Positions 19,862 through 36,364 are shown, counted from the stretch's first letter. The stretch: DNA of 63,575 bases from an uncultured Candidatus Saccharibacteria bacterium (GCA_964602975.1 CAZRTH010000004.1:1-63575), one strand, 5' to 3'. Numbers and translations: made by a program. Notes: generated from the letters alone by a model not told the origin.

Positions 19862-21319
19862 CTAAAGACGAATATCAGCAACGAGAAAGGCCTGCCCGAC
19901 CGGGACGCTCGTGATCCTTCCTGACGAATCAATAATGGCCGACTCGAGGCCTTTGGTGGAGACGATGATGTGTTTGCCGGATTCGATCGCTTTCATAATT
20001 GCCGTTTGTCTGCCGCGGCGAGCCACGATCGATGATCCAAAAATAGCGTCGTTGCCGCTCACTGCGATGATATCAACTTCACGGGCGCGAGCGATGACGT
20101 CGGAATACAATATCTCTGAACAAATGAGAGGGAATATCCTGCCGGCGGCAGTCTCAAAGAAAAATGGCGACCTGTCGTGATCAGCGGAAAAATCTTTTTC
20201 CGAAAGCGGTAGCGGGTGGTGTTTGTGATAGATGCTTCGAATACTGCCCGCCTCGATGTGTACGATGGAGTTGAACAGTTGGGCATCTTTTTTGCTGTGC
20301 AGACCGATCAGGAAAGCAGTGTTTGGCGAGGCAGCCGACCAACCAAGCAACGTGTCGTACACTTTTTTTATCGTCGATCCGGGCAATTGATATCCGATCG
20401 GCAGGTTGAGTGCTTCGTCGATCACCAAAAAGGAGAGGGTGTTTTCTGGAAACACGATCACTGCCGGTTTTTCCTCGAGTGCAGCCTTGGCCGCAGCTTC
20501 GTAGTAGGTGAATCCGGCTAAACCGATACTCTCCTCTTGAGTAGTGAGGTGTGAATGGATGACTGCGACTCGCACAGTGCGATGCGCCGACCTTGCGACA
20601 TCACCTGCGTCATTACTGCCGATACTATTCAGCATTTCGATGCGATAGTATCCAAAAACAACGGTCGCTACTAGCAAAAAAACCGCTCCAACAAGCTGCG
20701 CCGCGTGTATCTGCACTTTTTCGACGGTCTTCGCGAAGAAACTTTCATGCAAACACACATTGACCGCCACAGCCAATGCTCCTAGTCCATATATGCCGAC
20801 CACTGAAGCAATTTGTCGAATATACGGCTCTGATGCAAGACTTATTCCCAGTTCTTGCCAGGCGATTCCTCCCGGGATGAGTGTTCTGAGGTACTCGAGT
20901 AGCGCCCATACAGCGGCAAGGGCGACAACCCGCAGAGGCCACCATCGAAACCAACGAGAAAGACTGTTTTGGGCACGTATTTTTTTATATGCGAGAGCAA
21001 AAAGTATGAAGAATGGAGCATTGCCGATAGCCGCCAACACCGCAAGGAATGTGTACAGAGCGGCCTCTTTATATTCGAAGAGTGTAGCGGTTCGCTCGAT
21101 CCACCACCACGCATTGGTGCTTGCCAGAGGAAAAAGAGAGTAGCAGCCGTACATCATACCGAGCGCGGCGCTACCAATACAGAGCTGACGAGTATTGGTG
21201 CTTCGTTCGATAAAAATGAGGAATGGGATGAGTGCGACGAAGGCCAGCCAGCCGATTTCGAGCGGCGGAAAGGTAGCGCAGAGCAGGATCGCGGACAACA
21301 CGGGAAGCAGAAAAAGCAT
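19862..21319 (-). CDS. lnt: Apolipoprotein N-acyltransferase
   Basis: 485 aa. Polytopic N-terminal half plus a C-terminal CN-hydrolase domain with putative E-K-C triad contexts (VIVFPENT, YHKHHPLPLSE, PLICSEILY). Confidence 0.8.
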   Translation of the reverse strand: MLFLLPVLSAILLCATFPPLEIGWLAFVALIPFLIFIERSTNTRQLCIGSAALGMMYGCYSLFPLASTNAWWWIERTATLFEYKEAALYTFLAVLAAIGNAPFFILFALAYKKIRAQNSLSRWFRWWPLRVVALAAVWALLEYLRTLIPGGIAWQELGISLASEPYIRQIASVVGIYGLGALAVAVNVCLHESFFAKTVEKVQIHAAQLVGAVFLLVATVVFGYYRIEMLNSIGSNDAGDVARSAHRTVRVAVIHSHLTTQEESIGLAGFTYYEAAAKAALEEKPAVIVFPENTLSFLVIDEALNLPIGYQLPGSTIKKVYDTLLGWSAASPNTAFLIGLHSKKDAQLFNSIVHIEAGSIRSIYHKHHPLPLSEKDFSADHDRSPFFFETAAGRIFPLICSEILYSDVIARAREVDIIAVSGNDAIFGSSIVARRGRQTAIMKAIESGKHIIVSTKGLESAIIDSSGRITSVPVGQAFLVADIRL

Positions 21320-21353: not shown

Positions 21354-21362
21354 TGGTATAAT
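21354..21362 (+). promoter_or_regulatory. Extended -10 promoter element (TGgTATAAT) for the T4SS-like operon
   Basis: TGGTATAAT ends 11 nt before the ATG at 21374, which implies a very short or absent leader. No clear -35 is seen. Confidence 0.45.
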
Positions 21363-21373
21363 GCGTTCACCTC

Positions 21374-22414
21374 ATGCATCACCTGCGCCATCGGCATCAT
21401 CGTTCACTGAGCTTGCTGCACGCTTCGCTATTTCTCGCGATCGTCCTCTTTGCTGTAGTTTTTTTTCCGAAAAACTCTCGAGCCGAAGATGAATTTTTGT
21501 ATCGAGCACTCCGACTCGGTGATTCCGGCACTGACGTGACGCTCCTCCAAAAGAAATTGAATGCCGATCCGGATACGCGCGTAGCAGAAACCGGCCCGGG
21601 TTCGCCGGGAAATGAGACGCTTCGTTTCGGCATGCTCACTCGCGATGCAGTCATTCGTTTTCAGGAAAAATATTTTGCTGAGATCCTCGTGCCGATCGGC
21701 TTGAGCAAAGGTACCGGTTTTGTTGGCGAAGCAACAAGACGCGTGCTGAACAAAAGCGCTGTCGTCGCGCCCACGGCACCAGCAACACCTCCATCTACGC
21801 CGGCACCAACTCCAGCTCCTACTCCGGCCCCAACAGCAAAAACCGATCTCTACATCACCTTTCCTTCGAGCTACTATGGCCCGCGCGGCTCCAAGCTCAG
21901 CATCGGTGGGAAGGGTTTCACCAAAACCAAAAATACCCTTTATCTTGGCCCTGAATTTCAGATCACGGATATTTCTTCGAGTGACGGCGCAAATATCACA
22001 GTCACTATTCCTGACAACGCGCCGTATGGAAAACATGTCACCTGGGTGGAGAATGTGAATGGCAAAACGATCAACACTAGCTTCTATGTTGTGACAAAAG
22101 AAGGTTCTGTCCCGCCGGTGATCAAAAGTGTGAGTCCGGAGAGCGGTCTCTACGGTCAGCAGGTGACTGTGTACGGCGAAAACTTTGCTCCACAGGGGAA
22201 TGAGATTTTGACAAACTATCATATAATTAAAGACGTGCCGTCGCCCGATGGCACGTCACTCACCTTCTCCGTCACGCCCTTTCCTGATATTCCGCAGCTT
22301 CAGGTGGGAGTAGACCTCAAGAGAGGGATCGAAGCAGTGATGACCTTCTATGTTGTCAACGAGAACGGCGTGAGCAACAAAGAAAAGCCGGGGAAATTCA
22401 CTCTCAAAATATAA
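21374..22414 (+). CDS. Secreted peptidoglycan-binding (PG_binding_1-like) protein with IPT/TIG-like repeats
   Basis: Signal/anchor sequence, then LRLGDSGTDVTLLQKKLN...LTRDAVIRFQEKY (PG-binding pattern). A Pro/Thr/Ala linker follows, then two similar beta-rich modules (ITFPSSYYGPRGSKLSIGGKGF / IKSVSPESGLYGQQVTVYGENF). Confidence 0.65.
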   Translation: MHHLRHRHHRSLSLLHASLFLAIVLFAVVFFPKNSRAEDEFLYRALRLGDSGTDVTLLQKKLNADPDTRVAETGPGSPGNETLRFGMLTRDAVIRFQEKYFAEILVPIGLSKGTGFVGEATRRVLNKSAVVAPTAPATPPSTPAPTPAPTPAPTAKTDLYITFPSSYYGPRGSKLSIGGKGFTKTKNTLYLGPEFQITDISSSDGANITVTIPDNAPYGKHVTWVENVNGKTINTSFYVVTKEGSVPPVIKSVSPESGLYGQQVTVYGENFAPQGNEILTNYHIIKDVPSPDGTSLTFSVTPFPDIPQLQVGVDLKRGIEAVMTFYVVNENGVSNKEKPGKFTLKI

Positions 22415-22786
22415 ATGCTCGCTTTTTTCAAAAAATTCCGTCTCTCCATCGCGATCATCCTCGCGGCCTGCTTGATAGCTGGCACTTTTGTGTACAGAGC
22501 GAACGCTGTCACCGGTCTACCTTTCGGCGGAATGGTCGTTTCCACAGTCTACTGCACCTGCACGAATGCTTTTCTCATCACCATCGCTCTCCCTATTCCC
22601 GGAAATTACCTCTACTTTCCGGGCACACCGCAGTTTGCCTACTACCAGCTCCCACGAACCGGAGTGTGGACGATCGGCCTATATGCTCCAGGCGGTGCCT
22701 GCCTGATGTTTGCGGGCAAAGCCGGCTGCGTGCCGTATGCACTCCAACCATTTGGAACGATCGAATTTGCCGGAACCTCGCTATGA
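22415..22786 (+). CDS. Hypothetical small secreted Cys-containing protein
   Basis: 123 aa with an N-terminal signal (AACLIAGTFVYRANA) and six Cys. Its ATG directly abuts the upstream stop codon. Confidence 0.55.
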   Translation: MLAFFKKFRLSIAIILAACLIAGTFVYRANAVTGLPFGGMVVSTVYCTCTNAFLITIALPIPGNYLYFPGTPQFAYYQLPRTGVWTIGLYAPGGACLMFAGKAGCVPYALQPFGTIEFAGTSL

Positions 22787-23664
22787 AACCTCTTTACACA
22801 AAAATCGCACTTGGAATCATTGTTGCCGGCCTAGCGGGTGGGATCGTAGTGCTTGCGCGCACTGAAAAGAGCATTGATCTCGGATTGGCAGACGAAAATA
22901 GCGGACCGAAGATTCAACCGATATCCGGAAGCAACGAGGGACTTTTCAGAGACACTTTTAACGCTTCCGATCCTGAAAATGGAGTCTCCGTCACCGAATC
23001 CAAGGTCTCCGAAGCCGCGAAAAGTTTCGACAAGCGCAATCTGACCGACCGCATCTCCATCGACCTCTTTGCCAAGTATCTCGTCCTGAAAAATAACGGG
23101 CAGGAGATCACCCCCGAGGTGCAGGAGGCTCTGGTAAAGAACGTGATCGAGGAAAATATGCAGAAAATCGAGTATCAGAGCTATTCTACGGCCAATCTGA
23201 AGGGTATTTCGAATCCAACTATCGCCCAAATCCGAGAGTATGGAAATACTCTTGCCACGCTGATCATCGAAAATTCGCCCAAAAAACAGGCTGAAAACGA
23301 ACTCGCCTTGTTGGCAAAAGTGGCGGACGAAGGCGGCAATTCGGAGAGTTTGGCTGAACTGAAGGCCATAGCGACTGCCTACAGGATCGTGGCTGAAAAA
23401 CTGCTCGCAATGACAGTACCGATCGATGCAAGAGCGAACCATATCGCCCTCGCCGAGATCGCCGGCAAGATCGGGGTCAATATCAGCAATTTTGCCCTAT
23501 TCGAGACTGATCCAGCCTCCACGATCTCTCACGTAGCTGCTTATGATGAGAATGTCTCGACCCTAAACACGGTACTGCACGCGATCAGCAGTTACTTCGC
23601 TCAAAAAGGCATTGTGTACTCCACAAAAGAGCCCGGTTATGCCTTTACCCTTATAGGGCAGTGA
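22783..23664 (+). CDS. Hypothetical membrane-anchored protein
   Basis: Start chosen at the ATG at 22783 (ATGA overlap with the upstream stop), giving MKPLYTKIALGIIVAGLAGGIVVLA. The rest is helical and acidic. The tracked ORF 22666 extension was rejected. Confidence 0.6.
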   Translation: MKPLYTKIALGIIVAGLAGGIVVLARTEKSIDLGLADENSGPKIQPISGSNEGLFRDTFNASDPENGVSVTESKVSEAAKSFDKRNLTDRISIDLFAKYLVLKNNGQEITPEVQEALVKNVIEENMQKIEYQSYSTANLKGISNPTIAQIREYGNTLATLIIENSPKKQAENELALLAKVADEGGNSESLAELKAIATAYRIVAEKLLAMTVPIDARANHIALAEIAGKIGVNISNFALFETDPASTISHVAAYDENVSTLNTVLHAISSYFAQKGIVYSTKEPGYAFTLIGQ

Positions 23665-23678
23665 GCTAAAATTGAGGG

Positions 23679-24584
23679 GTGAAGCGATTTCGCATTGCCA
23701 ATGCCGGAAAAGGCGCGTTGTGCTCGTTGCTCGTGGCCTCGATCCTCCTTGTTTCCCTCGTACCGAGCGATCTTGCCTTCGCGCCAAAGAAAGCAGAGGC
23801 TTTTTTCGGGTGTGTTCCAAGGCCGGCAATACCAGCAGTAGTGCCGATCGCAGTTCCGACCATTGATCTTGGCGTGATTTCAGTCACAACGCAAATAGGA
23901 CTGTCGCAAAACGCCATCACCGATCGAAAGTGTTTCCTCGACTTCATTGTGAAAACTATTTCGAGAGCAGTGGTGCATGCGCTGGTATCTTCCATCATCG
24001 ACTGGATCAACCGCGGATTCGAGGGCGGACCGACATTCGTCACTGACCCTGCCGGATTTTTTGGAAACATTGCCGATCAAGAAATTGGGCGAATGATTGA
24101 CGGCTCGGCTCTCGGATTCGTCTGCGACCCATTCCGTCTTCAACTACAACTTTCCTTCCTCCAACAACGAAACCGTGCGGTCTCGCCTTCGCGCTGTAGC
24201 ATCACGAGCATTGTGAAAAACTTCCAAGGATTCGTGAATGGCAATTTCAATCAGGGAGGGTGGCAGGGTTGGGTGTCGATGACAAGCAAGCCCCAAAACA
24301 ATCCCTTTGGCTCGCAGATACTCGCGGAAGAAGTGCTCGCCGCTCGAGTGACCAGCCGCCAAAATACCGCTAAAGTCTCGCTCGATTGGGGCAAGGGCTT
24401 CAAATCGCTGCTTTCGAGCGATGGCACCATCAAGACTCCCGGCTCACTCATCGAAGGCCAGCTACAGAAAGCTACGGGCAACGAGTTGGATTACCTCAAC
24501 TTGGCCCGAGAGTTCGACGATATCGTAATCGCTTTGATAAACCAGGGCCTCAGTCAGATCATGAGTAGCGGCCTGAAGAAATAA
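23679..24584 (+). CDS. Hypothetical secreted protein
   Basis: 301 aa with a GTG start and a signal peptide (LVASILLVSLVPSDLAFA). I recognise no motif. Confidence 0.55.
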   Translation: MKRFRIANAGKGALCSLLVASILLVSLVPSDLAFAPKKAEAFFGCVPRPAIPAVVPIAVPTIDLGVISVTTQIGLSQNAITDRKCFLDFIVKTISRAVVHALVSSIIDWINRGFEGGPTFVTDPAGFFGNIADQEIGRMIDGSALGFVCDPFRLQLQLSFLQQRNRAVSPSRCSITSIVKNFQGFVNGNFNQGGWQGWVSMTSKPQNNPFGSQILAEEVLAARVTSRQNTAKVSLDWGKGFKSLLSSDGTIKTPGSLIEGQLQKATGNELDYLNLAREFDDIVIALINQGLSQIMSSGLKK

Positions 24585-24585
24585 C

Positions 24586-27213
24586 ATGAGATCGAATCCT
24601 TTCTACAAATACCTCGGAATCGCGCTCATGGCGGTCTTTGTTTTGTCTTTAGGATTTTCGCTTATTTCTGAAACAGCGCTTGCGCAAGGCAGCCTCCAAA
24701 CTCCTAAAGATGACACGAACTATAACGACACTGTAGCCCAGCGCATCAATGAAGGAGACAACCCGACTTATGACGACGTTGTTAATCAGCGTGCCGACGA
24801 AATAGCAAATCCGAGCTACGACGATGTCGTAAACGATCGGATCAATGAGACTCAGAATCCTTCCAACACTTCTGCGAATGGTCAGAGCCAAAATGCAAGC
24901 GCGCCCGGAAATGCCGCGACAGGCGGCAACGGCCAGCAGGACACGAGCTTCTCACTGAGAATGCTGTCCCCATACTACTTCATCCCAGCGATGATGAAGA
25001 TACTCGGGAATATGATCCTTGGAATTTTCGGTTGGGTCCTCGGCTTGGTCGGCTTGATCTTCAACTTCATCATCGACAAAACGATCGTGAATTTGAAAAC
25101 GACCATCGACAGCCTTGGCGTCATCAATGATATCTGGAAAGTGATCCGCGATTTCATCAATCTCTTCTTCATCTTCGCGCTTCTCTATGCTGCGGTCGGC
25201 ACAATCCTTGGTCTAGAGAAAGTCGATTGGAAAAAGACAGTTTCCAATTTGATCATTGCCGCGCTTCTCATGAACTTCAGTCTTTTCATCACCAAGGTGG
25301 TTCTCGACGTTTCCAATATCGTGACAATCGGCTTCTACAACCAGCTTCCGGGAGTAGGGGCGCAGGGTTTGGTCGGGGCGGACAAGGGCATATCGAACAG
25401 CATCATGCAGTCACTGAAATTGGAGACGATATACAAGCCGAAATACACCGGTACAGCCATCGGAGACATGGAGAACTCTCCAGCCACGGCATTTGCGTAC
25501 GTTCTGTCGACTTTCATGGCAAGCATTTTCATCTGCGTCACTATCGTAGTGATCGTTGCCGCCGGCTGGCTCTTCCTGAGGCGATTCATCGATATCATAT
25601 TCCTAATGATCCGCTCGCCGATCGCCTTTGCCGGACTAGTGCTGCCACAACTCGACGAATACCAAAAAAATTGGTGGAAAGAATTGCAAGCAAATGCCAC
25701 CTTCCCACCGGTATACATGGCGATGATGTGGATCACTTTCAAAATACTTCAGAGTCCCGGCTTCCAGACGGTAGCTCCGGGAGTGGACGGATTTTCGGGC
25801 CTTTTTTCAAGCTTGACCGGAACCACGATAAATATCGTCTTCCGTTTTATTGTCGTGATCGCCATGATGGTGTACGCGCTCAAGAGCGCGGGCAAAGTGG
25901 GTATCGAGGGCGGCGAGATCTTTACGGAATTCTTGTCGAAGAAGAAGGGGCAGCTGAAGGGTGTGATCGGAAGGAATACTCTCGGACGTGCAGCAGCTGC
26001 GGCAAGAGAAAGTGGTTTTGCCAAAAATGTTGAGGCTATTAGCCCTCTCGCTGGACGCCTCATGAACAGCAATTTGAAGACTATCAGCGGAGCTTCCTTT
26101 GGCGGGGCAAAGGGTGGTTTTGATGCTGCGGTAAAGCAATCAGAAAAAGACGCGAAGGAGGGTTATGAAAGAGTGTCTAAAGCAGTTGCATGGACCGAAG
26201 CGGCTCCATACAAGCGCACTTTTGAGAGCGACGAAGCCTTTGCCGCAAGAAACACTGCATACACCGAGAGGAAAGCTGCTTTTGAAAAGGAGGCCGGCAA
26301 AGACAAGGAGAAACGACAGAAAGACTACGTTGAATCTCTCAAGACCGGCGTGCCTGTTCTGCCTGATCTAAATGTAGGGGTGAAGACCAATATAAAGGCG
26401 CTCGATCCTTCTACTTGGACCAAAGAAAATCTCAAAAATACTAAGGTATCGGCAAATATTCAACCGTTCCGTGTTGGAGAGGAATGGAAGGAGAATATCT
26501 CTGCGGTAAACGCTGTCGATGAGCAAATCAAAGAAGACGCGAAGAAAGAGGACAAGAAGACAAGGGCAAAGACAGATCTCGGAAGGATCAAGACCGAGCA
26601 AGCGGAGGCCGAGGAAGAAATGTTGGCTTCATACAAGAAATACGCTGAAGCAGCTGGTGCAACACCGGAGGCGATCAACAAGCTTGTCGCTCTGCTGACA
26701 AAGCGATTCGAAGACATACCGAATGAAGGGGAGAGGATAGCGGCGATCGCGGCAAACAAGCAGGAGATTCGATCGGTCCTCGAGGAGATCCAGGTTTCTG
26801 AGGAGAGAAAGATCGAGGAGGAAACCAAGAAGATTGCCCAGCAGGAAGCAACGATGAGAAGCATTGAGATTGAATTGAATGCGGCATTCGAGGAAAAACG
26901 CTCAGCAGAAAAACCGACGACAGAAAAGAATATTCAGAGACTTCAGGGCGAATTGGCGGCGGCGACTTTGAACAGGAAAGTTCTTGAGAAGGCACCGGAC
27001 AAGCGAGCAGGTTTCTTAAAAACCGCTGAATCGAAAAAGAATGAAGCTGCCACCAAGCGGGAGCAGGTGATCACTCGAGAAAATCAACTTGCGCAAGAAG
27101 AGAAGCTCGACACTCTTGGCAAGGATATCGGCGCTGTGAAAGAGAGTTCTGGGAAAAAAGATGACGATGGCGGCGGAAAGGGTGGCGGCAAGCCAAAGGA
27201 GGATAAGAAATAA
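24586..27213 (+). CDS. Large polytopic membrane protein, VirB6/TrbL-like by architecture, with Lys/Glu-rich coiled-coil tail
   Basis: 875 aa. It has a signal peptide, three tandem ~16-aa NP(T/S)YDDVVNxR repeats, about 7 hydrophobic spans between residues ~125 and 470, then ~380 aa of charged coiled coil ending in GGGKGGGKPKEDKK. It sits upstream of the PrgI/VirB4 genes. The VirB6 call rests on topology and context only. Confidence 0.5.
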   Translation: MRSNPFYKYLGIALMAVFVLSLGFSLISETALAQGSLQTPKDDTNYNDTVAQRINEGDNPTYDDVVNQRADEIANPSYDDVVNDRINETQNPSNTSANGQSQNASAPGNAATGGNGQQDTSFSLRMLSPYYFIPAMMKILGNMILGIFGWVLGLVGLIFNFIIDKTIVNLKTTIDSLGVINDIWKVIRDFINLFFIFALLYAAVGTILGLEKVDWKKTVSNLIIAALLMNFSLFITKVVLDVSNIVTIGFYNQLPGVGAQGLVGADKGISNSIMQSLKLETIYKPKYTGTAIGDMENSPATAFAYVLSTFMASIFICVTIVVIVAAGWLFLRRFIDIIFLMIRSPIAFAGLVLPQLDEYQKNWWKELQANATFPPVYMAMMWITFKILQSPGFQTVAPGVDGFSGLFSSLTGTTINIVFRFIVVIAMMVYALKSAGKVGIEGGEIFTEFLSKKKGQLKGVIGRNTLGRAAAAARESGFAKNVEAISPLAGRLMNSNLKTISGASFGGAKGGFDAAVKQSEKDAKEGYERVSKAVAWTEAAPYKRTFESDEAFAARNTAYTERKAAFEKEAGKDKEKRQKDYVESLKTGVPVLPDLNVGVKTNIKALDPSTWTKENLKNTKVSANIQPFRVGEEWKENISAVNAVDEQIKEDAKKEDKKTRAKTDLGRIKTEQAEAEEEMLASYKKYAEAAGATPEAINKLVALLTKRFEDIPNEGERIAAIAANKQEIRSVLEEIQVSEERKIEEETKKIAQQEATMRSIEIELNAAFEEKRSAEKPTTEKNIQRLQGELAAATLNRKVLEKAPDKRAGFLKTAESKKNEAATKREQVITRENQLAQEEKLDTLGKDIGAVKESSGKKDDDGGGKGGGKPKEDKK

Positions 27214-27225
27214 AAAGCGAACACC

Positions 27226-27759
27226 ATGATACCAAGATCAATACGAACTGCGGCAGAAATGGAAAGCTACTTCAATAGCCTTCCTTCTGATATTCAGAAC
27301 GCATTGACCGATACTCATCTTCAGGAACAGATCAGTGAGATTTGTGATCGGAATGGGGTTGCAGGTAGCTGTGAGTTGATCACGAAAGAGACGACCGCAA
27401 CGCTCATGGGAGTACAACCGATAAAAGGTTTTGTCTCTCGATTGGCAGCACAGGCAAAGATCGCCGCGCCGGTAGCGCAGAAAATTGCCGACGAGATCAA
27501 CGAAAATATCTTTCGAGCAGTGCGACAATCGCTCATCCTCATCCATGAAATACCGCAGAATGAGCAGGCACAGATACCGGCAGTGGAGCAGCATTTCGAG
27601 CACTTGATCGAAAACCACACTCCGGCGAAAATTGCTTTGTCTCGCCCAGCTGCTCCCGCCCCAAAAACCCTCGCTGAGCAGAAAATGAGCCGCCCGACCA
27701 GCCTGCCGCCCCAGATCTCCCGCAATGAACCGGATCCATACAGAGAGTCGATCGAATAG
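27226..27759 (+). CDS. Hypothetical protein (no signal peptide)
   Basis: 177-aa ORF inside the operon. I recognise no motif. Confidence 0.5.
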   Translation: MIPRSIRTAAEMESYFNSLPSDIQNALTDTHLQEQISEICDRNGVAGSCELITKETTATLMGVQPIKGFVSRLAAQAKIAAPVAQKIADEINENIFRAVRQSLILIHEIPQNEQAQIPAVEQHFEHLIENHTPAKIALSRPAAPAPKTLAEQKMSRPTSLPPQISRNEPDPYRESIE

Positions 27760-27776
27760 TGCGGTATAATAACGCC

Positions 27777-28226
27777 ATGCGATTCCAAGTTCCACAATTC
27801 ATCGAGGTGGAAGACAAGATCATCGGTCCCTTGACCATCAAGCAATTCATTTACATCGCTGGCGGCGCCGGCATGTGCTTCGTCATTGTGCGATTCCTGC
27901 CGCTCTTTATCGGCATCTTGGTAGCGCTTCCGATAGGAGCCTTTGCCCTAGCTCTCGCGTTCTATCATCCCAACGAGCGGCAAACATTTATCCTCTTTGT
28001 GGAGAATGCTTTTCGCTACTTCATTGGCAACAAGCTATACATCTGGAAAAAGCAGGAGAAAAAGCCAGTAGCAAAGACAGCGGAAGAGAGGGAATCCACC
28101 AACGATCTGGACAATCTGTACGTGCCGCGCCTAGCAGACAGCAAGCTGAAAGACATGACATGGAACCTAGATATCACGACGAAGGAGCTGGCTAATCCCG
28201 TTACGAAAAACAATAAACAGGTATAA
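27777..28226 (+). CDS. PrgI-family (VirB3-like) small membrane protein
   Basis: MRFQVPQFIEVEDKIIGPLTIKQFIYIAGGAG followed by two hydrophobic helices is the characteristic PrgI-family N-terminus. Start set at the ATG at 27777 rather than the tracked GTG at 27759. Confidence 0.75.
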   Translation: MRFQVPQFIEVEDKIIGPLTIKQFIYIAGGAGMCFVIVRFLPLFIGILVALPIGAFALALAFYHPNERQTFILFVENAFRYFIGNKLYIWKKQEKKPVAKTAEERESTNDLDNLYVPRLADSKLKDMTWNLDITTKELANPVTKNNKQV

Positions 28227-28244
28227 TTCAGTTATCGCACCACA

Positions 28245-28877
28245 ATGGCACTCACCAAATCAGCACCGAGCCAACAGTTTGTCCCTATCAAAGAAGTGAG
28301 GGATGGCATTGCCATCCTCAAAGACGGCTCAATGCGTGCGCTTCTGCTCACTTCTTCCCTCAACTTCGCACTCAAATCCACCGAGAGTCAGGAGGCGATC
28401 ATCTACCAGTTCCAAAATTTCCTCAATTCACTGGATTTCACTGTGCAGATATTCATCACTTCACGCCGGCTCGACATTCGGCCATACATCGCGCTGCTCG
28501 AGAACCGATACAAGGAGCAAACAGGGGAGTTGCTACGCCTTCAGACTCGGGAGTATATCGAATTCATCAAAAAGTTCACCGAATCTGCCAATATCATGAC
28601 AAAAAGCTTCTTCGTGGTGGTGCCGTATAGCTCGGCGATCCTCAACAAGGGCAGCGCTTCCGGCATTTTCGGCAAAAAAGACGTGCAGAAGGAGACAGTT
28701 CAGAAAAATGAGGCATTCGAGGAAGCAAAATCACAAATTCAGCAGCGTGTGAGCGTCGTCGAGCAGGGATTGACCCGTGTCGGAGTGCGAGTAGCACAGC
28801 TCGGAACCGAAGAGATCATCGAGCTCTTCTACAAGATCTTTAACCCCGGCGAAACTGACAAGCCGATCCAGCTATAA
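28245..28877 (+). CDS. Hypothetical protein, possible stand-alone paralog of the VirB4 N-terminal domain
   Basis: 210 aa. By eye, its motif order resembles residues ~30-190 of the downstream VirB4. Examples: FLNSLDFTVQIFITSRRLDIRPYIALLENR versus IINLDKIFDISIFIHPIDTAQVLRQFQKKV, and SFFVVVPYS versus VGLYISIYG. Confidence 0.4.
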   Translation: MALTKSAPSQQFVPIKEVRDGIAILKDGSMRALLLTSSLNFALKSTESQEAIIYQFQNFLNSLDFTVQIFITSRRLDIRPYIALLENRYKEQTGELLRLQTREYIEFIKKFTESANIMTKSFFVVVPYSSAILNKGSASGIFGKKDVQKETVQKNEAFEEAKSQIQQRVSVVEQGLTRVGVRVAQLGTEEIIELFYKIFNPGETDKPIQL

Positions 28878-28885
28878 ACACTACT

Positions 28886-30730
28886 ATGGGATTTCTTTCA
28901 AACATGTTTAGCAAAAAGGGGAGTGCGGATGCTCAATTGAAAGCATCGATCTTGCCGCAGGACATTTACAATGCTAGCACCCTCGACCTAAAAGACGTCA
29001 TCGCCCCTTCCGCGCTCAAGGTAAGCCCTCGTTCGCTCAACCTCGGCGAAAAGCTCGTGCGCACCTTCTTCGTCATTTCATACCCACGATACCTTTCTGA
29101 AGGTTGGTTCTCGCCGATCATCAATCTCGACAAGATCTTCGATATTTCGATCTTTATCCATCCGATCGATACGGCGCAAGTGCTCCGACAATTTCAAAAG
29201 AAGGTGGCCGAGGTGCAGAGCCAGATCCATGACCGAGAGCGCAAAGGTTTGGTGCGAGACCCAATGCTCGATACCGCATATCAAGATCTCGAGTCCCTTC
29301 GAGACAATTTGATGCAGGCACAGGAAAAGCTTTTCGACGTCGGTCTCTATATCTCTATCTATGGAGACACTGAACAGGAGCTCGACAAGATCGAATCCGA
29401 GATCAAGTCTATCCTCGAATCGAAGCTGATCTACCTGCGCCCTGCGCTGTTCCAGCAGGAGCAGGGTTTGCGCAGCGTGTTGCCGATCGCGACAGACGAG
29501 CTCAATGTGCTCTCAAAGCTCAATTCTTCGCCACTTTCCAGCCTTTTTCCATTCACCTCATTCGACCTCACTTCGGACAAAGGTATTTTGTACGGTATCA
29601 ACCGCCACAATTCTTCGCTGGTGCTCTTCGATCGCTTCTCCCTCGAAAACTACAACTCCATCACCTTTGCAAAGTCCGGTTCCGGAAAATCATACTGTAC
29701 CAAGCTTGAGATCTTGAGAACATTGATGTTTGATACCGAGGTGATCGTCATTGACCCTGAAAAGGAGTACGAATACATGGCGCAAGCGTCGGGAGGGAAG
29801 TATTTCAATATCTCGCTGAACTCGCCGCACCATATCAACCCATTCGACTTGCCGGTACCGCGCGAAGATGAGTCGGGTGCCGATGTGCTCCGCTCAAACA
29901 TCATCAACTTGGTGGGTATTTTCCGAATCATGCTTGGCGGACTCACGCCGGAGGAAGATGCGATCATCGACCGTGCGATCACCGAGACCTACGCGCTCAA
30001 AGATATCACTCCGGATGCTGATCTCAGCAAGGTGGAAGCACCGCTGATGTCCGATTTCGAATTGGTGCTTGCTGGCATGCAAGGAGCAGAGTCACTCGTC
30101 CAACGTCTCACCAAATACACGCGAGGTACTTGGTCCGGCTTTCTCAATCGTCCAACCAACGTCGATATCAACAACAAGTTCATCGTCTTCTCGCTCCGCG
30201 ACATGGAAGAGGAGCTCAAGCCGGTGGCAATGTACATCGTGACGCACTTCATTTGGAACGCTGTGCGCAAAAATCTCCGCAAGCGCCTGCTGGTGATCGA
30301 CGAAGCATGGTGGATGATGAAATCCGAAGATACGGCTTCATTCCTGCTTAGTTTGGCGAAACGCGGTCGAAAATACTACCTCGGCCTCGCCACCATCACC
30401 CAAGACGTCGACGACTTTTTGAAATCGCCATACGGTCTGCCGATCATCACCAACTCTTCCATTCAGATCCTCCTCAAGCAGTCACCAACTTCGATCGACA
30501 AGCTCCAGGCGACCTTCAACCTCACCGATGAGGAAAAGTTTTTGCTCCTCGAGTCGGGCGTTGGTGAGGGTTTGTTCTTTGTTGGCCTCAAACATGTCGC
30601 GATCAAGATCATTGCCTCATACACCGAAGACCAGATCATCACCTCCGACCCATCGCAGATATTGGCGATCCAAAAAGCCAAGGCCGACCTCTCTGCGAGC
30701 GCGAATGAGGCAGCTAGCCAAAAGGCGTAG
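28886..30730 (+). CDS. virB4: VirB4/TrsE/PrgJ-like type IV secretion ATPase
   Basis: 614 aa. Walker A FAKSGSGKSY, Walker B LLVIDEAWWMM, and an N-terminal domain pattern (TFFVISYPRYLSEGWFSPIIN) typical of VirB4 proteins from monoderm systems. Confidence 0.85.
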   Translation: MGFLSNMFSKKGSADAQLKASILPQDIYNASTLDLKDVIAPSALKVSPRSLNLGEKLVRTFFVISYPRYLSEGWFSPIINLDKIFDISIFIHPIDTAQVLRQFQKKVAEVQSQIHDRERKGLVRDPMLDTAYQDLESLRDNLMQAQEKLFDVGLYISIYGDTEQELDKIESEIKSILESKLIYLRPALFQQEQGLRSVLPIATDELNVLSKLNSSPLSSLFPFTSFDLTSDKGILYGINRHNSSLVLFDRFSLENYNSITFAKSGSGKSYCTKLEILRTLMFDTEVIVIDPEKEYEYMAQASGGKYFNISLNSPHHINPFDLPVPREDESGADVLRSNIINLVGIFRIMLGGLTPEEDAIIDRAITETYALKDITPDADLSKVEAPLMSDFELVLAGMQGAESLVQRLTKYTRGTWSGFLNRPTNVDINNKFIVFSLRDMEEELKPVAMYIVTHFIWNAVRKNLRKRLLVIDEAWWMMKSEDTASFLLSLAKRGRKYYLGLATITQDVDDFLKSPYGLPIITNSSIQILLKQSPTSIDKLQATFNLTDEEKFLLLESGVGEGLFFVGLKHVAIKIIASYTEDQIITSDPSQILAIQKAKADLSASANEAASQKA

Positions 30731-30742
30731 CGAAACATTCCC

Positions 30743-31231
30743 ATGGCCTCGAAAGATCATCACGAACCTATCACCAATCTCGGTTGGTTTTTCCTTTTCG
30801 CTTTTACCATCACTATCGACATTGCTCAAATACTACTGGATCTCGCTTTTGGGGCCGGCGTAATAGCAAATCGGATCATTGATGTGGGTGTCGCCTTTGC
30901 ACTCCTCCTGATCTTCTATCTGAAAGGTGTGTCGCTCACCCCCGCGCAATACAGCAGCATCTGTGCGGCTTTTATTGGCGAAGAGATCCCCGCGATCGAT
31001 GTCCTCCCAATGTGGACACTCGATGTGTTCTATATTTTCATGAGCATCAAAGGGCAGGAACTCGCTGAAAAGGCCGGAGTGGCAGGGAAGGTGGTGGAAA
31101 TGGCGGTCAAAGCCGCAAAGAAAGGGCAGGGAGGCGGCGGATCGGCCGCTGCCTCTGCCGCGAACGAGGCTGAATTGCCTCCACCACTCCCAACCAATAC
31201 AGTAGACCTGCGACCGCCGAGCAGCGCTTAG
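30743..31231 (+). CDS. Hypothetical small polytopic membrane protein
   Basis: 162 aa with 3-4 hydrophobic spans and a Gly/Ala/Pro-rich tail. Confidence 0.55.
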   Translation: MASKDHHEPITNLGWFFLFAFTITIDIAQILLDLAFGAGVIANRIIDVGVAFALLLIFYLKGVSLTPAQYSSICAAFIGEEIPAIDVLPMWTLDVFYIFMSIKGQELAEKAGVAGKVVEMAVKAAKKGQGGGGSAAASAANEAELPPPLPTNTVDLRPPSSA

Positions 31232-31275
31232 TTATTCACTACAGCAACAAGGGCTTTGTGATAAAATGAAGGGGC

Positions 31276-32484
31276 ATGAGATCTCACAACGTTCTCACAT
31301 ACGCCGTTGCATCTTTCTGTATTTGCCTCATTTCCCTATGGGTACTCGGCACAGTTGTCGCCACTCCTGCTTTTGCCCAAACAACGGCCTCGACCGCAAC
31401 CTCATCAGCCTCATCGGCCACCTCCACCCCCGAAAGCGCGCTTGATGAATACCTGAAACAGCTCAACTCAGCCACATCGAGCATTCCTGACTATCTAAAG
31501 AACGCGAAGCCTCCAACCGAAGCGGATATTCCCGAGCTTCCGGACGAATTCAAGCAGGTGCCGATCATCGTCACGTTGAAGCCCGAGTTTCCGACAGCTT
31601 TTCAAGATGTGGTAGCAAGCGTGGACAGCTATTCGGCCGACATGGATCGAAGCCAGATCACTTGGTCGATCAATGGCAAGACGGTCAAGAAGGGTACCGG
31701 TGTAAAAACGTTTAATTTCAAAGCAGGAAAGAATGGCAGCTACACTACGCTCGGCGTTTCGATTCTTTTCAACGGCGTCACGAGCAAGAAAAGTGTGAGC
31801 ATCACCCCAGCCACCGTGGATCTTGTATGGCAGTCCGATTCATACGTTCCACCCTTCTATAAAGGCAAGGCTCTCTTTTCTCATCAAAGCAACGTCAAGG
31901 TGGTCGCCATTCCAAACATCTTCACAAAGGACGGCGTACTGATCCCTGCCTCGAAACTCATCTATCGATGGAAGCTCGATCGGGAATTCGTAGCGGCTGT
32001 CTCGGGAGTTGGCAAAAATATCGTCGTCTTCAATGAAGCAATCCCTGTCGATGAAAAAGCGATTAGTGTAGAGGTCTCGACCGCCGACTCCAGCGTGAGC
32101 ACATTTGGACAGATTTTCGTGCACAGCGTCGGAACCAATCCTGTATTGTACCAAGATGCACCTCTTACCGGCATCTCATACGAACGGGCGCTGCCGAGCA
32201 GCTTGAGCTTGGCTGATTCTGAAATGAAGCTCGTCGTCGAACCCTATTTCTTCTCAGTGAAAAGCCGCGATAGCAGCAACTTGTACTACTCATGGTCTCT
32301 CAATGGCAATACGGTTCCCGAAGTGAGCCGCAGCAGCATCGTGTTCAAAGTGCCTGAAGCAGAAAAGGGGACTGCGCAGGTGAATGTCGAGCTAAAGCAG
32401 CCAAATAAAGTGTTTCAAACCAATGCCGGCAGCTTGCTGATCAATTATTCCAGCCCAGGCAGCGGTAAATCTCTCTTTCAATGA
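31276..32484 (+). CDS. Hypothetical secreted protein
   Basis: 402 aa. Signal peptide (SLWVLGTVVATPAFA), a Ser/Thr/Ala-rich linker, then beta-rich sequence. Confidence 0.55.
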   Translation: MRSHNVLTYAVASFCICLISLWVLGTVVATPAFAQTTASTATSSASSATSTPESALDEYLKQLNSATSSIPDYLKNAKPPTEADIPELPDEFKQVPIIVTLKPEFPTAFQDVVASVDSYSADMDRSQITWSINGKTVKKGTGVKTFNFKAGKNGSYTTLGVSILFNGVTSKKSVSITPATVDLVWQSDSYVPPFYKGKALFSHQSNVKVVAIPNIFTKDGVLIPASKLIYRWKLDREFVAAVSGVGKNIVVFNEAIPVDEKAISVEVSTADSSVSTFGQIFVHSVGTNPVLYQDAPLTGISYERALPSSLSLADSEMKLVVEPYFFSVKSRDSSNLYYSWSLNGNTVPEVSRSSIVFKVPEAEKGTAQVNVELKQPNKVFQTNAGSLLINYSSPGSGKSLFQ

Positions 32485-33518
32485 TAACAACGATGCTCGC
32501 TAGAAGTATAAAACGATCGGGAAGCCTTCTGAAGCATTCAATGATTTTTGCCTGTTTGCTTCTCGCTCTCGCAGGAACGATGTTGCCAGCGACGGCCTCC
32601 GCTGTAGCAGGTTTTGGCAACGCGGGAACCTACGTGTTGCTTGCGCCGATTCCGGGTACATACGACGAAGGTAGCTGTGCGCCAGGAATCGCAAATAGCT
32701 ACACCAACGGAGGACCTTCGGGAGGAAATGATGCGAGCGTACAAAATTGTACGACCAACTTTGTGACCTACATAAAGGGGTTTTTCAAGCTCGTAATTTC
32801 GCTATCATCGATCATCGCCGTGCTCGTGATCACTGCAGAGGGCTTCAAATTGGCCATTTCTACCAGTGAAGGGGCTCGAGACACTGCCAAAGAACGAATT
32901 GAACAGGCGCTGATCGGACTGGGTTTGGTGCTCGGATCGTATTTGATTCTGAATACCATAAATCCCGAACTCACCAAGATCAATTTCTACGTGGACAAGG
33001 TAGCGGATTACGCCGGCACATCAGCCTTCTTGCAAGATGGCCTGACTCAGGCACTCACCAATGAACAGGTGGCGGAAGCGCAGCGACGTGCTGATAGAGA
33101 AGCGAATGCCAATTTCAGCGCGCTTGCCACGCCGATACGAAAAGAGCTCGAGGAGCTCGGCGATTGCGCGGAGAAAGACGCGGCAGTCATGAATGACTGT
33201 TACAATAGGAAAACTGAGCTTGAGGAAGCCTTGAAACAAGCTGAGGCGAGCACAGATGTCCGAGCGGCAACAAACGCGCTTACGAGGCAGGTGAGAGAAC
33301 AAGTCGATCCGCTGCTCGTTCCGCCAACAACGTCAGCGGAAATCCACCAAGCGAGAACTGAGCTGGCTCAAATGTGGCGGATCGCTTCACAAAGGATCAC
33401 TGCATTGAGAGCGGAGGGCAAGACCGCTCAAGCCGATGCGGTCTTGGTGGAGGCACAGAAGATTCAACAGGAGACGAGCGCGCGTATCGATTTTCGAGCA
33501 AATCATCCGGATGGATGA
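32481..33518 (+). CDS. T4SS pilin-like (TrbC/VirB2-type hairpin) protein with long C-terminal coiled-coil extension
   Basis: Signal peptide (LLLALAGTMLPATASA), then a two-helix hydrophobic hairpin: FVTYIKGFFKLVISLSSIIAVLVITAEGFKLAISTSEGARDTAKERIEQALIGLGLVLGSYLILNTINPEL. This resembles the T4SS_pilin pattern common in candidate phyla (recollection; needs hmmscan). About 170 extra C-terminal residues follow. ATGA overlap with the upstream gene. Confidence 0.55.
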   Translation: MITTMLARSIKRSGSLLKHSMIFACLLLALAGTMLPATASAVAGFGNAGTYVLLAPIPGTYDEGSCAPGIANSYTNGGPSGGNDASVQNCTTNFVTYIKGFFKLVISLSSIIAVLVITAEGFKLAISTSEGARDTAKERIEQALIGLGLVLGSYLILNTINPELTKINFYVDKVADYAGTSAFLQDGLTQALTNEQVAEAQRRADREANANFSALATPIRKELEELGDCAEKDAAVMNDCYNRKTELEEALKQAEASTDVRAATNALTRQVREQVDPLLVPPTTSAEIHQARTELAQMWRIASQRITALRAEGKTAQADAVLVEAQKIQQETSARIDFRANHPDG

Positions 33519-33564
33519 TAATGGTGAATATTCGTCTGGCGGATTCGGCACGTAAAACAATCGT

Positions 33565-34893
33565 ATGAAAAAGAGCACTGCATATACAATACTCGGGATC
33601 ATCATTGGCATCATCGTCGTTGCCCTTGGCATCTTGTATTTCCTTTTCTTGAGGACGCCGGCGAAATCTCCGGACCTTGGACCTGATACAAATAGCGAGG
33701 GGAAGGCAGAACACGGTGGTTTCGGCGGGACAGGGGAGACGAATCCTCCGGCAGTTGATACGGGAGTGCCGACAGGATCCGGAGCGACCACCACCGAAGA
33801 AGTTCCTCCGCCGCCTCGACTACGAAAGATCTCTGCTGGCCCTGTCGCCGGAGCTGTCGCTTTTGACCAAACAGTGAAGGTTGGTACGACCACAAAGACT
33901 GAAACTCATGTTCGGTTCATCGAGCGCATCAACGGCGCCGTATATGAGACTCGTACAGACGTTCTCGATACTCAGAAGATCGCCAGCGCCTCTATTCAAA
34001 AGATCCGCCAAGCACTTTGGGCAAAAGATGGCGCTAGCGTCTATCTTCGATATACCACAGACCAAAATCCGTACGCGGTGGAGACATACGTCGCGAAATT
34101 GACACCATCGAAGACAGCCACCTCGAGCCAAGCCGCCCTGCCGAGCGATATCAACTTTCTGCCGCAAGAGCTACGCGGGAGCTTCCTTGCCAGAAACCTT
34201 GTCGAGGTGATCCCTTCTCCATTCACCCTTGGTACCGTCTTCTACTCGTTGCCAAAATCAGGAAATCTGCAGGGTATTTTGTCGAGCCGAGATGATACGA
34301 GAAAGGTGGAAGTGCTCAATTCGCCTGTACTCGAATGGAGTAGCCAGTGGTTGGCAACCAATCTGTTTGCGCTCACCACCAAAGCATCCGCTTTCTCTGA
34401 TGGGTTCCTCTACTTCCTAAACACCGACACTCAGAAGCTCGATCGTGTGCTGGGTAATATCCGCGGCCTCACCACGCTCACTAGCGCCGATCAAAAATAT
34501 GTCATTTACTCGAACTCGAGCGACAACGGTTTCAGTACCCGACTTTTCAACACAAAGACCGGCGCGCTCGATGCTTTCTCCTTCACTGTCTTGCCAGAAA
34601 AATGCGTCTGGAGCAAGAAGCGTGTATCGATCGTATACTGCGCAGTGCCCCGGGATGTTCCAAATGGCGCCTATCCGGACAGCTGGTATCAAGGAACGAT
34701 GAGTTTTGTAGACGACATTTGGGGCATCGATGCATCGACAGGATCGACCAAGCTGCTCGTCAGCCTGACCGCCGTATCAAAAGAGGAGGTCGATGTAATA
34801 CAACCATTCCTCAGCGCGAGGGAGGATTATCTTTTCTTCACTAACAAAAAAGACGGCTCGCTATGGAGTCTGTTTCTTTCGACGAACAAATAG
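33565..34893 (+). CDS. Hypothetical membrane-anchored extracytoplasmic protein (beta-propeller-like)
   Basis: 442 aa. N-terminal anchor (ILGIIIGIIVVALGILYFLFL), a Gly/Pro/Thr linker, then a repetitive beta-rich body. It is the last gene of the same-strand block. Confidence 0.55.
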   Translation: MKKSTAYTILGIIIGIIVVALGILYFLFLRTPAKSPDLGPDTNSEGKAEHGGFGGTGETNPPAVDTGVPTGSGATTTEEVPPPPRLRKISAGPVAGAVAFDQTVKVGTTTKTETHVRFIERINGAVYETRTDVLDTQKIASASIQKIRQALWAKDGASVYLRYTTDQNPYAVETYVAKLTPSKTATSSQAALPSDINFLPQELRGSFLARNLVEVIPSPFTLGTVFYSLPKSGNLQGILSSRDDTRKVEVLNSPVLEWSSQWLATNLFALTTKASAFSDGFLYFLNTDTQKLDRVLGNIRGLTTLTSADQKYVIYSNSSDNGFSTRLFNTKTGALDAFSFTVLPEKCVWSKKRVSIVYCAVPRDVPNGAYPDSWYQGTMSFVDDIWGIDASTGSTKLLVSLTAVSKEEVDVIQPFLSAREDYLFFTNKKDGSLWSLFLSTNK

Positions 34894-35580
34894 TTCCTGG
34901 CAGATGGCAAAAATGTTGCTCGTGGTCCAGTAGATAGCAATACCGGCGTTGATGCTGTATGAGGCAAAGAACACAAAAACAGGGAGGACGTACTTCATTT
35001 GCGTACTCATGGCATGAGCGAGGTCTCCGCCGAATGACGGTTCCGCTTTCGGATCCTTCTTCATCGCCGGCATTGAATATTTGATCTGGAAAAATTGCGT
35101 TACGGACGCCAACAAGGCCAGTTCCCAGCTTTTTTTGGTGATATCAATGAAAAGGAGCTTCATTTCCACTACGGCTGGAATATGAACGAAGGAGTACAGC
35201 AAAGAAGGATCGATCTTTGGCAAACCGCCACGATAAAAGATCTGGTAAAGCGCGATGATGATCGGGATCTGGATGAAAATAAGCAGGATGTTCGAAAAAG
35301 GATTGATGCCGACCTCTTTGTACAACTTCATGGTCTGCATCGATTGCTCGGCAGGGTCTTTGTACTGCTTTTTCAGCTCATTGATGCGAGGTTCGAGCTC
35401 TTTCATTCTCATCTGGCTCACCACGGCCTTGCGGGAGAGAGGGAAGAGGATGAGCTTTACGATCACCGTGAAAAGCATGATAGCTATGCCGAAATCAGCC
35501 CATTGAGGCAGCGCGTTGAGCAGTAAAATAAGGCCGTTATACAACGGCTCGTAGAAAAACGTATGGTAGAGATAACTCAT
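34861..35580 (-). CDS. yidC: Membrane protein insertase YidC (short type)
   Basis: 239 aa. GIAIMLFTVIVKLILFPLSRKAVVSQMRMKELEPRINELKKQY and position upstream of rnpA-rpmH. Confidence 0.88.
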   Translation of the reverse strand: MSYLYHTFFYEPLYNGLILLLNALPQWADFGIAIMLFTVIVKLILFPLSRKAVVSQMRMKELEPRINELKKQYKDPAEQSMQTMKLYKEVGINPFSNILLIFIQIPIIIALYQIFYRGGLPKIDPSLLYSFVHIPAVVEMKLLFIDITKKSWELALLASVTQFFQIKYSMPAMKKDPKAEPSFGGDLAHAMSTQMKYVLPVFVFFASYSINAGIAIYWTTSNIFAICQELFVRRKKQTP

Positions 35581-36142: not shown

Positions 36143-36249
36143 GAGCAATAGCGTAACACAGAGTACAAAAATGTTCAATATTTATAGCCATGCCTTGCAG
36201 AGAAATGGGGGATTTTATGCTTCGGAGTCTACATCGCGGTGTTTTGGAG

Positions 36250-36304: not shown

Positions 36305-36364
36305 GTCACATTTGCTAAAGCAACTCGACCAGAAATTGGAGGGAGGTGTTAAAATCTTGCGAGT

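Follow-up and report, generated by a model that had tools for sequence, protein, structure and literature searches.

We examined a stretch of 63,575 nucleotides (nt) from an uncultured Candidatus Saccharibacteria bacterium (GCA_964602975.1 CAZRTH010000004.1:1-63575), here called the window, in which thirteen densely packed plus-strand open reading frames (ORFs), labeled O1 to O13 in order from 5′ to 3′, span positions 21374-34893. The block encodes a cytoplasmic-membrane core in the order putative VirB6-like protein (O5), PrgI/VirB3 (O7), TrsD (O8), and VirB4 (O9), in which VirB4 is of the Gram-positive (MPF-FATA) type, together with one VirB2-like pilin (O12) and exported or membrane-anchored proteins. 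We conclude that the block is probably the chromosomal type IV secretion system (T4SS) typical of Patescibacteria, in its Paceibacteria arrangement, and that it probably serves contact-dependent exchange with a host rather than conjugation. An earlier note on this DNA had proposed a chromosomal, origin-proximal, and non-conjugative apparatus, a proposal supported by hidden Markov model (HMM) searches, synteny, and the literature. Its further suggestion, a minimal architecture with undescribed accessory components, needs correcting in that such systems were published between 2023 and 2025 (PMC10633639, PMC12102498).

The core is made up of the following proteins.

24586-27213, + strand: O5, 875 amino acids (aa), polytopic protein, "extended VirB6-like" with moderate confidence
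27777-28226, + strand: O7, 149 aa, PrgI/VirB3-like membrane protein
28245-28877, + strand: O8, 210 aa, TrsD/TraD-like protein that duplicates the VirB4 N-terminal domain as a separate polypeptide
28886-30730, + strand: O9, 614 aa, VirB4 ATPase of the Gram-positive/MPF-FATA CD1110 type
32481-33518, + strand: O12, 345 aa, VirB2-like T4SS pilin

O9 matched the NCBIfam model conju_CD1110 (E value of 2.5e-115; 386 bits against a cutoff of 325) as well as Pfam P-loop_TraG and AAA_10, consistent with the VirB4 ATPase previously called at 28886, and its sequence contains intact Walker A (GSGKS) and Walker B (VIDEAW) motifs. The match was restricted to model positions 180-733. O8 aligned to positions 2-119 of the CD1110 VirB4 model and to positions 100-233 of the Mbov_0397 model, matched NCBIfam TrsD (E value of 3.8e-6), and has orthologues on which the Pfam TraC-like domain PF26593 is present. 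As O9 lacks the N terminus of the model and O8 matches the part that is missing, VirB4 is split here in the manner of the pGO1/pSK41 subclass. The earlier note had placed O8 among eight ORFs that could not be assigned and so missed the TrsD-like part of the split VirB4; for O2, O3, O6, and O10 that judgment held.

The family HMM of the ATPase matched the Gram-positive PrgJ of pCF10 far more strongly (E value of 5.8e-52) than the Gram-negative TrwK of R388 (3e-8). Identity of O9 to PrgJ was about 27%. The nearest relatives of O9 were 77 to 86% identical, and their taxon labels, where given, were Patescibacteria, with several titled only "bacterium." A survey of 3,035 Patescibacteria genomes found VirB4 in 2,417 of them, as a clade nested within MPF-FATA (Quinonero-Coronel et al. 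2025, Microb Genom, PMC12102498). The similarities of O9 are strongly suggestive of membership in this monophyletic Patescibacteria VirB4 clade, a placement that is based on identity rather than on a tree.

The remaining core proteins were assigned with differing strength. O7 exceeded the Pfam PrgI cutoff (35.8 bits; cutoff, 27), in agreement with the PrgI/VirB3-like protein noted earlier at 27777, and O12 exceeded the cutoff for Pfam T4SS_pilin (27.3 bits; cutoff, 26.6). Moreover, 39 of 40 O12 orthologues matched T4SS_pilin (best E value of 2.2e-11) and 3 matched TrbC/VirB2, so that the two-helix pilin-like protein proposed at 32481 is upheld. O12 carries a signal peptide and two transmembrane (TM) helices at residues 92-158, followed at the C terminus by some 185 aa of variable, helical tail, which appears to be extracellular, judging from hydropathy and charge; its orthologues range from 140 to 555 aa in length. 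O5 itself had no Pfam, NCBIfam, or PDB match. It is laid out as a signal segment, a low-complexity stretch, about 5 to 6 TM helices at residues 140-425 (six hydrophobic segments by hydropathy), and a charged coiled-coil tail of about 450 aa. Six of 36 O5 orthologues matched Pfam TrbL/VirB6 (best E value of 1.6e-4), and hhalign of the O5 family gave a probability of 43% with R388 VirB6 (TrwI; E value of 2.5e-4), over a conserved SP...W segment, and of 8% with PrgH. Directly 5′ of PrgI-TrsD-VirB4, O5 also occupies the same place as the VirB6-like SEML1_0011 of Southlakia epibionticum. Thus, the VirB6/TrbL-like giant described at 24586 was confirmed in its polytopic nature and its position, while its similarity to VirB6 is weak, and we regard O5 with moderate confidence as a putative extended VirB6-like protein in the sense of PMC12857230.

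The block lies between core genes, whose identities agreed with those given in the earlier note (lnt on one side and yidC-rnpA-rpmH-dnaA on the other).

17004-19004: uvrD, upstream flank
19032-19847: ksgA, upstream flank
19862-21319, strand opposite to the block: lnt, upstream flank
34861-35580, strand opposite to the block: yidC, downstream flank
after yidC, strand opposite to the block: rnpA and rpmH, downstream flank
36557-37903: dnaA, then dnaN, downstream flank

DnaA-box-like sites are clustered on both sides of dnaA. Paceibacteria T4SS loci have been reported to adjoin dnaA, dnaN, rnpA, ksgA, and rpmH (PMC12102498). In all, 555 confirmed virB4 relatives were collected from a species-representative genome collection and the best 80 loci (L001 to L080) were examined. 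The order uvrD-ksgA, O3-O4-O5-(O6)-O7-O8-O9-(O10)-O11-O12-O13, yidC-rnpA-dnaA-dnaN recurred in these 80 loci, with O7 found in 76 and O8 in 78. Taxon labels among them, where present, were Patescibacteria, mostly Parcubacteria/Paceibacteria, and also Taylorbacteria and Zambryskibacteria. Many of the nearest genomes also bear a Candidatus Saccharibacteria title, while those close to them in similarity have the Paceibacteria-type labels. The Saccharibacteria label of the window looks generic, and the class Paceibacteria is the more likely source.

The upstream edge of the block was less constant. O1 was found in 16 of the 80 relatives, mostly on the opposite strand, and in more distant relatives (L014, L038, L046, L048, L055, L056, L063, and L067) O1 and O2 lay on the opposite strand and diverged from O3. 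Two close relatives (GCA_974945995.1 and GCA_037130265.1, of which one lacks lnt) had all thirteen genes on one strand, and in both, as in the window, O1-O2 overlaps O3 by ATGA. The lnt gene lies beside O1-O2 in the window and in the close relative L081; L083 lacks it, and among the 80 other loci it was detected in 1. Because O1-O2 is flipped in distant relatives, the thirteen-gene operon claimed earlier holds for the window and the two close relatives, as a feature of their clade, but not at greater depth, where the unit is O3-O13 and O1-O2 is a separable module. The distribution points to a history of local inversion or insertion at the upstream edge of the operon.

Conservation was uneven within the block. 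Median identity to the window was 80% for VirB4 (range, 77 to 86%), 62% for TrsD, 51% for PrgI, and 25 to 36% for the remaining operon proteins, versus 60% for DnaA, 53% for DnaN, and 54% for UvrD of the same genomes. The loci had been picked by VirB4 similarity, which inflates the VirB4 value somewhat and counts against the comparison, but the within-genome contrast is still large. Identity above that of DnaA and DnaN, together with the intact Walker motifs, argues for strong purifying selection on VirB4. We conclude that few proteins of these genomes appear to be under tighter constraint than VirB4 and that its partner proteins appear to be fast-evolving.

The other eight ORFs of the block are accessory to this core.

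21374-22414, + strand: O1, 346 aa, signal/anchor segment, PG_binding_1-like domain, Pro/Thr-rich linker, and IPT/TIG domain(s)
22415-22786, + strand: O2, 123 aa, small Cys-rich exported protein with an N-terminal hydrophobic segment
22783-23664, + strand: O3, 293 aa, bitopic membrane protein with an extracytoplasmic domain, as predicted by sequence and hydropathy
23679-24584, + strand: O4, 301 aa, exported, mostly helical conserved protein in a short form, unassigned
27226-27759, + strand: O6, 177 aa, soluble and presumably cytoplasmic protein without a TM segment
30743-31231, + strand: O10, 162 aa, small membrane protein with 2 to 3 TM helices and a Gly/Ala-rich tail, by hydropathy
31276-32484, + strand: O11, 402 aa, exported protein with a Ser/Thr-rich linker and repeated immunoglobulin (Ig)-like beta domains
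33565-34893, + strand: O13, 442 aa, N-terminal TM anchor, disordered linker, and extracytoplasmic beta-propeller

Signals and anchors are widespread in the block, as had been observed before: 10 of the 13 proteins have a hydrophobic N-terminal segment or TM helices by Kyte-Doolittle hydropathy, the only predictor used. O13 gave the clearest fold. An AlphaFold2 model built from 119 sequences reached a predicted local distance difference test score (pLDDT) of 89.6 and a predicted template-modeling score of 0.82, and its best Foldseek matches in the PDB were TolB and S9-peptidase propellers (E value of about 1e-8; template-modeling score of 0.4 to 0.5), consistent with weak TolB/PD40 matches of the O13 profile. 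More than 660 homologues of O13 were found, all without names, and the labeled ones came from Parcubacteria/Paceibacteria. No other accessory gene was detected as widely as O11, which was found in 76 of the 80 relatives; O11 and 6 of 40 orthologues gave weak matches to BiPBP_C, PKD, and Ig domains. Orthologues of O4 are mostly 500 to 800 aa long and end in discoidin, Ig-like, or fn3 domains, and the family alignment contains conserved W109, G116, P118, and Cys pairs, making O4 a candidate surface or adhesin component. An AlphaFold model of O4 from 27 sequences was unusable (pLDDT of 48.5).

O1 exceeded the cutoff for Pfam TIG (33 bits; cutoff, 20.9). The peptidoglycan-binding protein proposed at 21374 fell just short of confirmation, with PG_binding_1 at 22.4 bits, just under the cutoff of 23. 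O1 is probably a wall-associated scaffold; O2 accompanies it in relatives. O3 was found in 36 of the 80 relatives at 20 to 30% identity, O10 in 14, and the poorly conserved O6 in 8. No family match was obtained for O2, O6, or O10, and a Pfam scan of their orthologues was equally empty. Two O3 orthologues (L005:2455-3372 and L070:3289-4185) carry an in-frame stop codon in the ORF reconstruction; they are possibly pseudogenes, assembly errors, or artifacts of extending tblastn hits.

Distant similarities of the accessory proteins were also sought. HMMs of the thirteen families, run against the pCF10 Prg/Pcf and R388 Trw proteins (reference plasmid records NC_028464 and NC_006827), gave a significant match for VirB4 alone, and no operon protein showed sequence similarity to PrgL or TrwG. 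Profiles of the O3, O4, O5, O11, and O13 families returned coiled-coil noise from PDB sequences, save for weak TolB similarity of O13. O3 was considered as a VirB8/PrgL-like protein and was unsupported in that role (hhalign probability of 0.8%; no PDB match). A VirB5-like role at the pilus tip was likewise considered for O4, prompted by one orthologue matching DUF4141 (1.3e-5), one matching TrbJ (0.017), and the adhesin domains of the orthologues; hhalign against R388 VirB5 gave a probability of 0.6%, and the assignment was unsupported. Pfam and NCBIfam scans found no hydrolase domain in any protein from O1 to O13, and tblastn found no PrgK-like sequence in the window or in 84 related loci.

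A cluster on the minus strand at 13325-16859, just 5′ of uvrD, encodes a Mur ligase, a FemAB-family peptidyl transferase, and a LysM+M23 peptidase, and is kept in L081 to L083. The M23 peptidase, 4.5 kb upstream of the block, could be the nearest candidate wall-remodeling enzyme for the T4SS, or it may be a mere cell-division enzyme.

A probable mechanism can be drawn from what VirB2, VirB3, VirB4, and VirB6 are known to do in other T4SSs. In it, the VirB4/TrsD ATPase would dock on VirB3 (PrgI) and the VirB6-like protein in the membrane, and ATP-driven extraction of pilin from the membrane would feed its polymerization, giving a short wall-crossing pilus or conduit. An envelope scaffold and host-cell contact would be provided by O1 (wall binding), O11 (Ig-like), O13 (beta-propeller), and the O4 family, and the machine would mediate contact-dependent exchange with the host, either protein export or uptake of macromolecules. 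Transposon sequencing in Southlakia epibionticum found its T4SS locus, SEML1_0006-0019, to be essential for growth as an epibiont (Wang et al. 2023, Cell, PMC10633639), and by analogy with that homologous locus the T4SS of the window is probably needed for epibiotic growth as well. In line with such a role, a 2026 preprint (10.64898/2026.06.21.733656) describes tubular structures, possibly T4SS pili, where a parasite meets its host. The position beside the origin may raise expression through gene dosage, the effect by which the survey read the location of the Paceibacteria locus (PMC12102498).

Several points weigh against this host-exchange interpretation. Nothing in the sequence identifies a substrate, a pilus has been demonstrated for no Paceibacteria T4SS, and essentiality is known only from a different class, Saccharimonadia. 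Among the proteins themselves, the VirB6 assignment of O5 is weak, the long C-terminal tail of O12 is unusual for a polymerizing VirB2, and VirB5-, VirB8-, and VirB1-type parts were not recognized in the operon by hhalign, HMM, or tblastn searches. Finally, the inspected part of the genome is the 63.6-kb window, so that a type IV coupling protein (T4CP) could be encoded elsewhere, and most Patescibacteria genomes do carry VirD4-like genes (PMC12102498).

A more specific proposal is that the Paceibacteria form is a distinct sub-architecture, in which the tailed pilin O12 together with O13, O11, and O4 (the last with swappable discoidin, Ig, or fn3 domains) would form a host-docking conduit that runs in reverse and imports host macromolecules, such as RNA or nucleotides, which the cell is unable to make. 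In this proposal O3 and O4 would take the functional place of VirB8 and VirB5 without being recognizable as such. We consider this conjecture improbable as a whole.

A different possibility is that the block is a working conjugation or mobilization machine that sends chromosomal or element DNA to other cells and whose coupling protein and relaxase are encoded at another chromosomal site. O9 does belong to the conjugative CD1110 family, and the reach of the window and the frequency of VirD4-like genes, raised above, speak for this possibility too, as does the finding that T4CP homologues are mostly encoded far from virB4 (PMC12102498). Mobility genes were sought in and around the block. Scans of the 13 operon ORFs and 27 other ORFs of the window found no T4CP or relaxase, and tblastn with PcfC, TrwB, PcfG, TrwC, and PrgK gave no match in 1.45 Mb, comprising the window and 84 related loci of ±10 kb around virB4; the control query, PrgJ, matched 84 of these 85 records. 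The sole recombinase seen was XerC/D-like (5984-6940), 14 kb from the block. Genes for tRNA occur only at the extreme ends of the window, with none adjoining the block, flanking direct repeats were limited to short matches at chance level, and no notable repeat was seen beside the block. These results bear out the earlier statement that no relaxase, T4CP, integrase, or direct repeats flank the block, and for T4CP and relaxase they extend it to the 84 loci. An integrative and conjugative element was considered and rejected, as the block has no adjoining tRNA gene, flanking repeat, or integrase, its GC content equals that of its surroundings, and its site is fixed in the related genomes examined.

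Other evidence also tells against conjugation. Relaxases were reported in only 103 of 3,035 Patescibacteria genomes (PMC12102498), the distant T4CP homologue of Southlakia is non-essential whereas its T4SS genes are essential, and a single origin-adjacent site fixed across the related genomes examined is unlike a mobile element. We conclude that conjugation is an unlikely function of the block.

The system could instead be a DNA-uptake machine like Helicobacter ComB or archaeal Ced, working with comM (11814-13331) and the PilB-type ATPase gene (48366-50063) of the window, a role that had been raised for the block before. VirB4 did match CedB weakly, and Patescibacteria, which lack nucleotide synthesis, depend on imported precursors for their nucleic acids (PMC10633639). 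However, the CedB match scored 38 bits against a cutoff of 700 and CedD scored 14.7 against 600, the HMMs of the thirteen families showed no similarity to ComB-type VirB8, VirB9, or VirB10 among the R388 Trw proteins, and comM and pilB lie 8 to 14 kb away amid unrelated housekeeping genes. Moreover, transformation of Southlakia requires comEC and type IV pili, and cells survive deletion of comEC but not loss of the T4SS (PMC12857230, citing Wang 2023), indicating that the essential role of the T4SS there is not DNA uptake for transformation. The comEC genetics thus disfavor an uptake role, which we regard as unlikely for the block. Lastly, that the block is a decaying, non-functional remnant of an integrated conjugative element whose mobility genes were lost is very improbable: relaxase, T4CP, integrase, and cell-wall hydrolase were not found and several ORFs lack a detectable family, but none of the 13 tightly packed ORFs is broken, both Walker motifs are preserved, conservation of VirB4 exceeds that of DnaA in the same genomes, order and location are kept in the 80 species-level genomes examined, GC content matches the surroundings, and the homologous Southlakia locus is essential (PMC10633639).

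The layout of the block is that of a compact transcription unit, as described in the earlier note. The ORFs, all on the same strand, are separated by gaps of 0 to 46 nt or joined by ATGA overlaps. Successive spacings from O1 to O13 are 0, −4, 14, 1, 12, 17, 18, 8, 12, 44, −4, and 46 nt, computed with start codons set to ATG 22783 for O3, the most likely start, and to ATG 27777 for O7. Both −4-nt overlaps (O2/O3 and O11/O12) are ATGA. The extended −10 element reported before O1 is present.

21354-21362, + strand: extended −10 promoter-like element TGGTATAAT, 11 nt before the O1 ATG, an exact match read from the sequence

The close relative L081 has TGGTATACT at the position matching TGGTATAAT of the window. 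The motif TGNTATAAT was counted at four sites in the window versus 0.8 expected.

6947-6955, − strand: TGNTATAAT site
9993-10001, + strand: TGNTATAAT site
21354-21362, + strand: TGNTATAAT site
50161-50169, + strand: TGNTATAAT site

Three of the four sites lie 6 to 11 nt 5′ of a start codon, those of the xerC/D-like gene, the ORF at 10010, and O1. The second of these ORFs (10010-11329; 439 aa), directly 3′ of the element TGCTATAAT and between the genes for polynucleotide phosphorylase (8116-9984) and comM, had no Pfam match. With only 11 nt between TGGTATAAT and the O1 ATG, transcription from this element would imply a leaderless or near-leaderless mRNA, and the motif sites suggest that such mRNAs may be common in the source organism. 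A generic sigma-70 scan found 10 promoter-like sites versus a shuffled mean of 13.3 (standard deviation [SD], 3.5) and thus no excess. Terminator-like sites numbered 25 versus a shuffled mean of 17.2 (SD, 3.4), a modest excess; the scan is uninformative on internal promoters or terminators. We conclude that TGGTATAAT is a promoter-like element that could possibly serve as the sole promoter of all thirteen genes.

At its 3′ end, O13 overlaps the convergent yidC by 33 nt (34861-34893), leaving no terminator space between the T4SS operon and yidC-rnpA-rpmH. The intergenic region between rpmH and dnaA contains two strong inverted repeats, one with perfect 28-nt arms 56 nt apart (36365-36392 and 36449-36476) and another with 23-nt arms 15 nt apart (36247-36269 and 36285-36307). 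Both adjoin two DnaA-box-like sites (36476 and 36487), and they may be oriC-associated structures or the rpmH terminator. Farther from the block, a protein of 580 aa that has a DUF7507 domain and ends in a sortase domain is encoded at 60462-62204, and a 626-aa SPFH/Band 7 protein is encoded at 57365-59245 on the strand opposite to an overlapping 457-aa ORF without a family match. Local GC content reaches 0.56 to 0.57 around 57 to 60 kb.

Compared with known systems, the block is closest to the Patescibacteria-clade T4SS surveyed in PMC12102498, with which it shares an MPF-FATA-type VirB4, TrsD directly 5′ of it, PrgI/VirB3, a VirB6-like protein (weakly for O5), and a VirB2-like pilin, all of which that paper reports near virB4. 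Also shared is a chromosomal position by dnaA, dnaN, rnpA, rpmH, and ksgA, with no relaxase or T4CP nearby. Nothing essential differs, and the paper leaves other neighboring genes without assignment. The system is thus already published, its location and lack of relaxase in 2025 and its essentiality in a cultivated relative in 2023, and the additions made here are modest: the O13 propeller fold, Ig-like domains in O11, adhesin-type domains in the O4 family of most relatives, a single pilin with a long tail, the inverted O1-O2 module, and the constraint on VirB4. In the close clade, O1-O2 is turned onto the strand of the block and lnt is inserted alongside. The Patescibacteria T4SS is the only member of its superfamily reported to be essential for its carrier, and it encodes a pilin although its carriers are monoderm; a 2025 nomenclature review treats the pilin-bearing monoderm T4SS as a distinct newcomer of the superfamily (PMC12857230). 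The locus is a clean and complete Paceibacteria example that adds nothing categorical, and the small additions could help in modeling the extracellular part of the machine or in choosing targets in a cultivable Paceibacterium.

The locus of Southlakia ML1 is Gram-positive-like in composition and has pilins and no recognizable coupling or relaxase proteins (PMC10633639). It shares with the block the core order of VirB6-like protein, PrgI, an unnamed gene of 294 aa where TrsD would stand, and VirB4, and a VirB4-associated TrsD homologue has been reported in ML1 (PMC12102498). Both loci encode PF18895 pilins, are origin proximal (genes 6 to 19 in ML1), and contain no recognizable relaxase or coupling protein. 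Southlakia has six small pilins in an array, whereas the block has one pilin with a 185-aa tail. A lysozyme/peptidase (VirB1-like) directly follows VirB4 in Southlakia, whereas no hydrolase was found in the operon described here, and no counterpart of the O13 beta-propeller is recorded in the Southlakia locus. Southlakia is a member of the class Saccharimonadia, whereas the source of the window more likely falls in Paceibacteria.

Systems outside the Patescibacteria resemble the block in part. With pCF10 Prg/Pcf and pGO1/pSK41 Trs it shares a CD1110-family VirB4 (PrgJ) and a PrgI family protein, and with the pGO1/pSK41 subclass it also shares the split into TrsD and VirB4. The block and the Gram-positive conjugative T4SSs alike have none of the outer-membrane core proteins VirB7, VirB9, and VirB10. 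Unlike in pCF10, PcfC, PcfG, a PrgK-type hydrolase, and a recognizable PrgL/VirB8-like protein were not found in the block, which is chromosomal and immobile and encodes a VirB2-like pilin, whereas Gram-positive conjugative systems reside on a plasmid or integrative and conjugative element and have no such pilin. VirB5, VirB7 to VirB11, and VirD4 of the R388/Agrobacterium VirB/Trw systems were not seen, and similarity to the VirB4 of R388 is distant. What the block does share with these systems is VirB2-, VirB3-, VirB4-, and, weakly, VirB6-like parts, which together make up the minimal inner-membrane set for pilus biogenesis.

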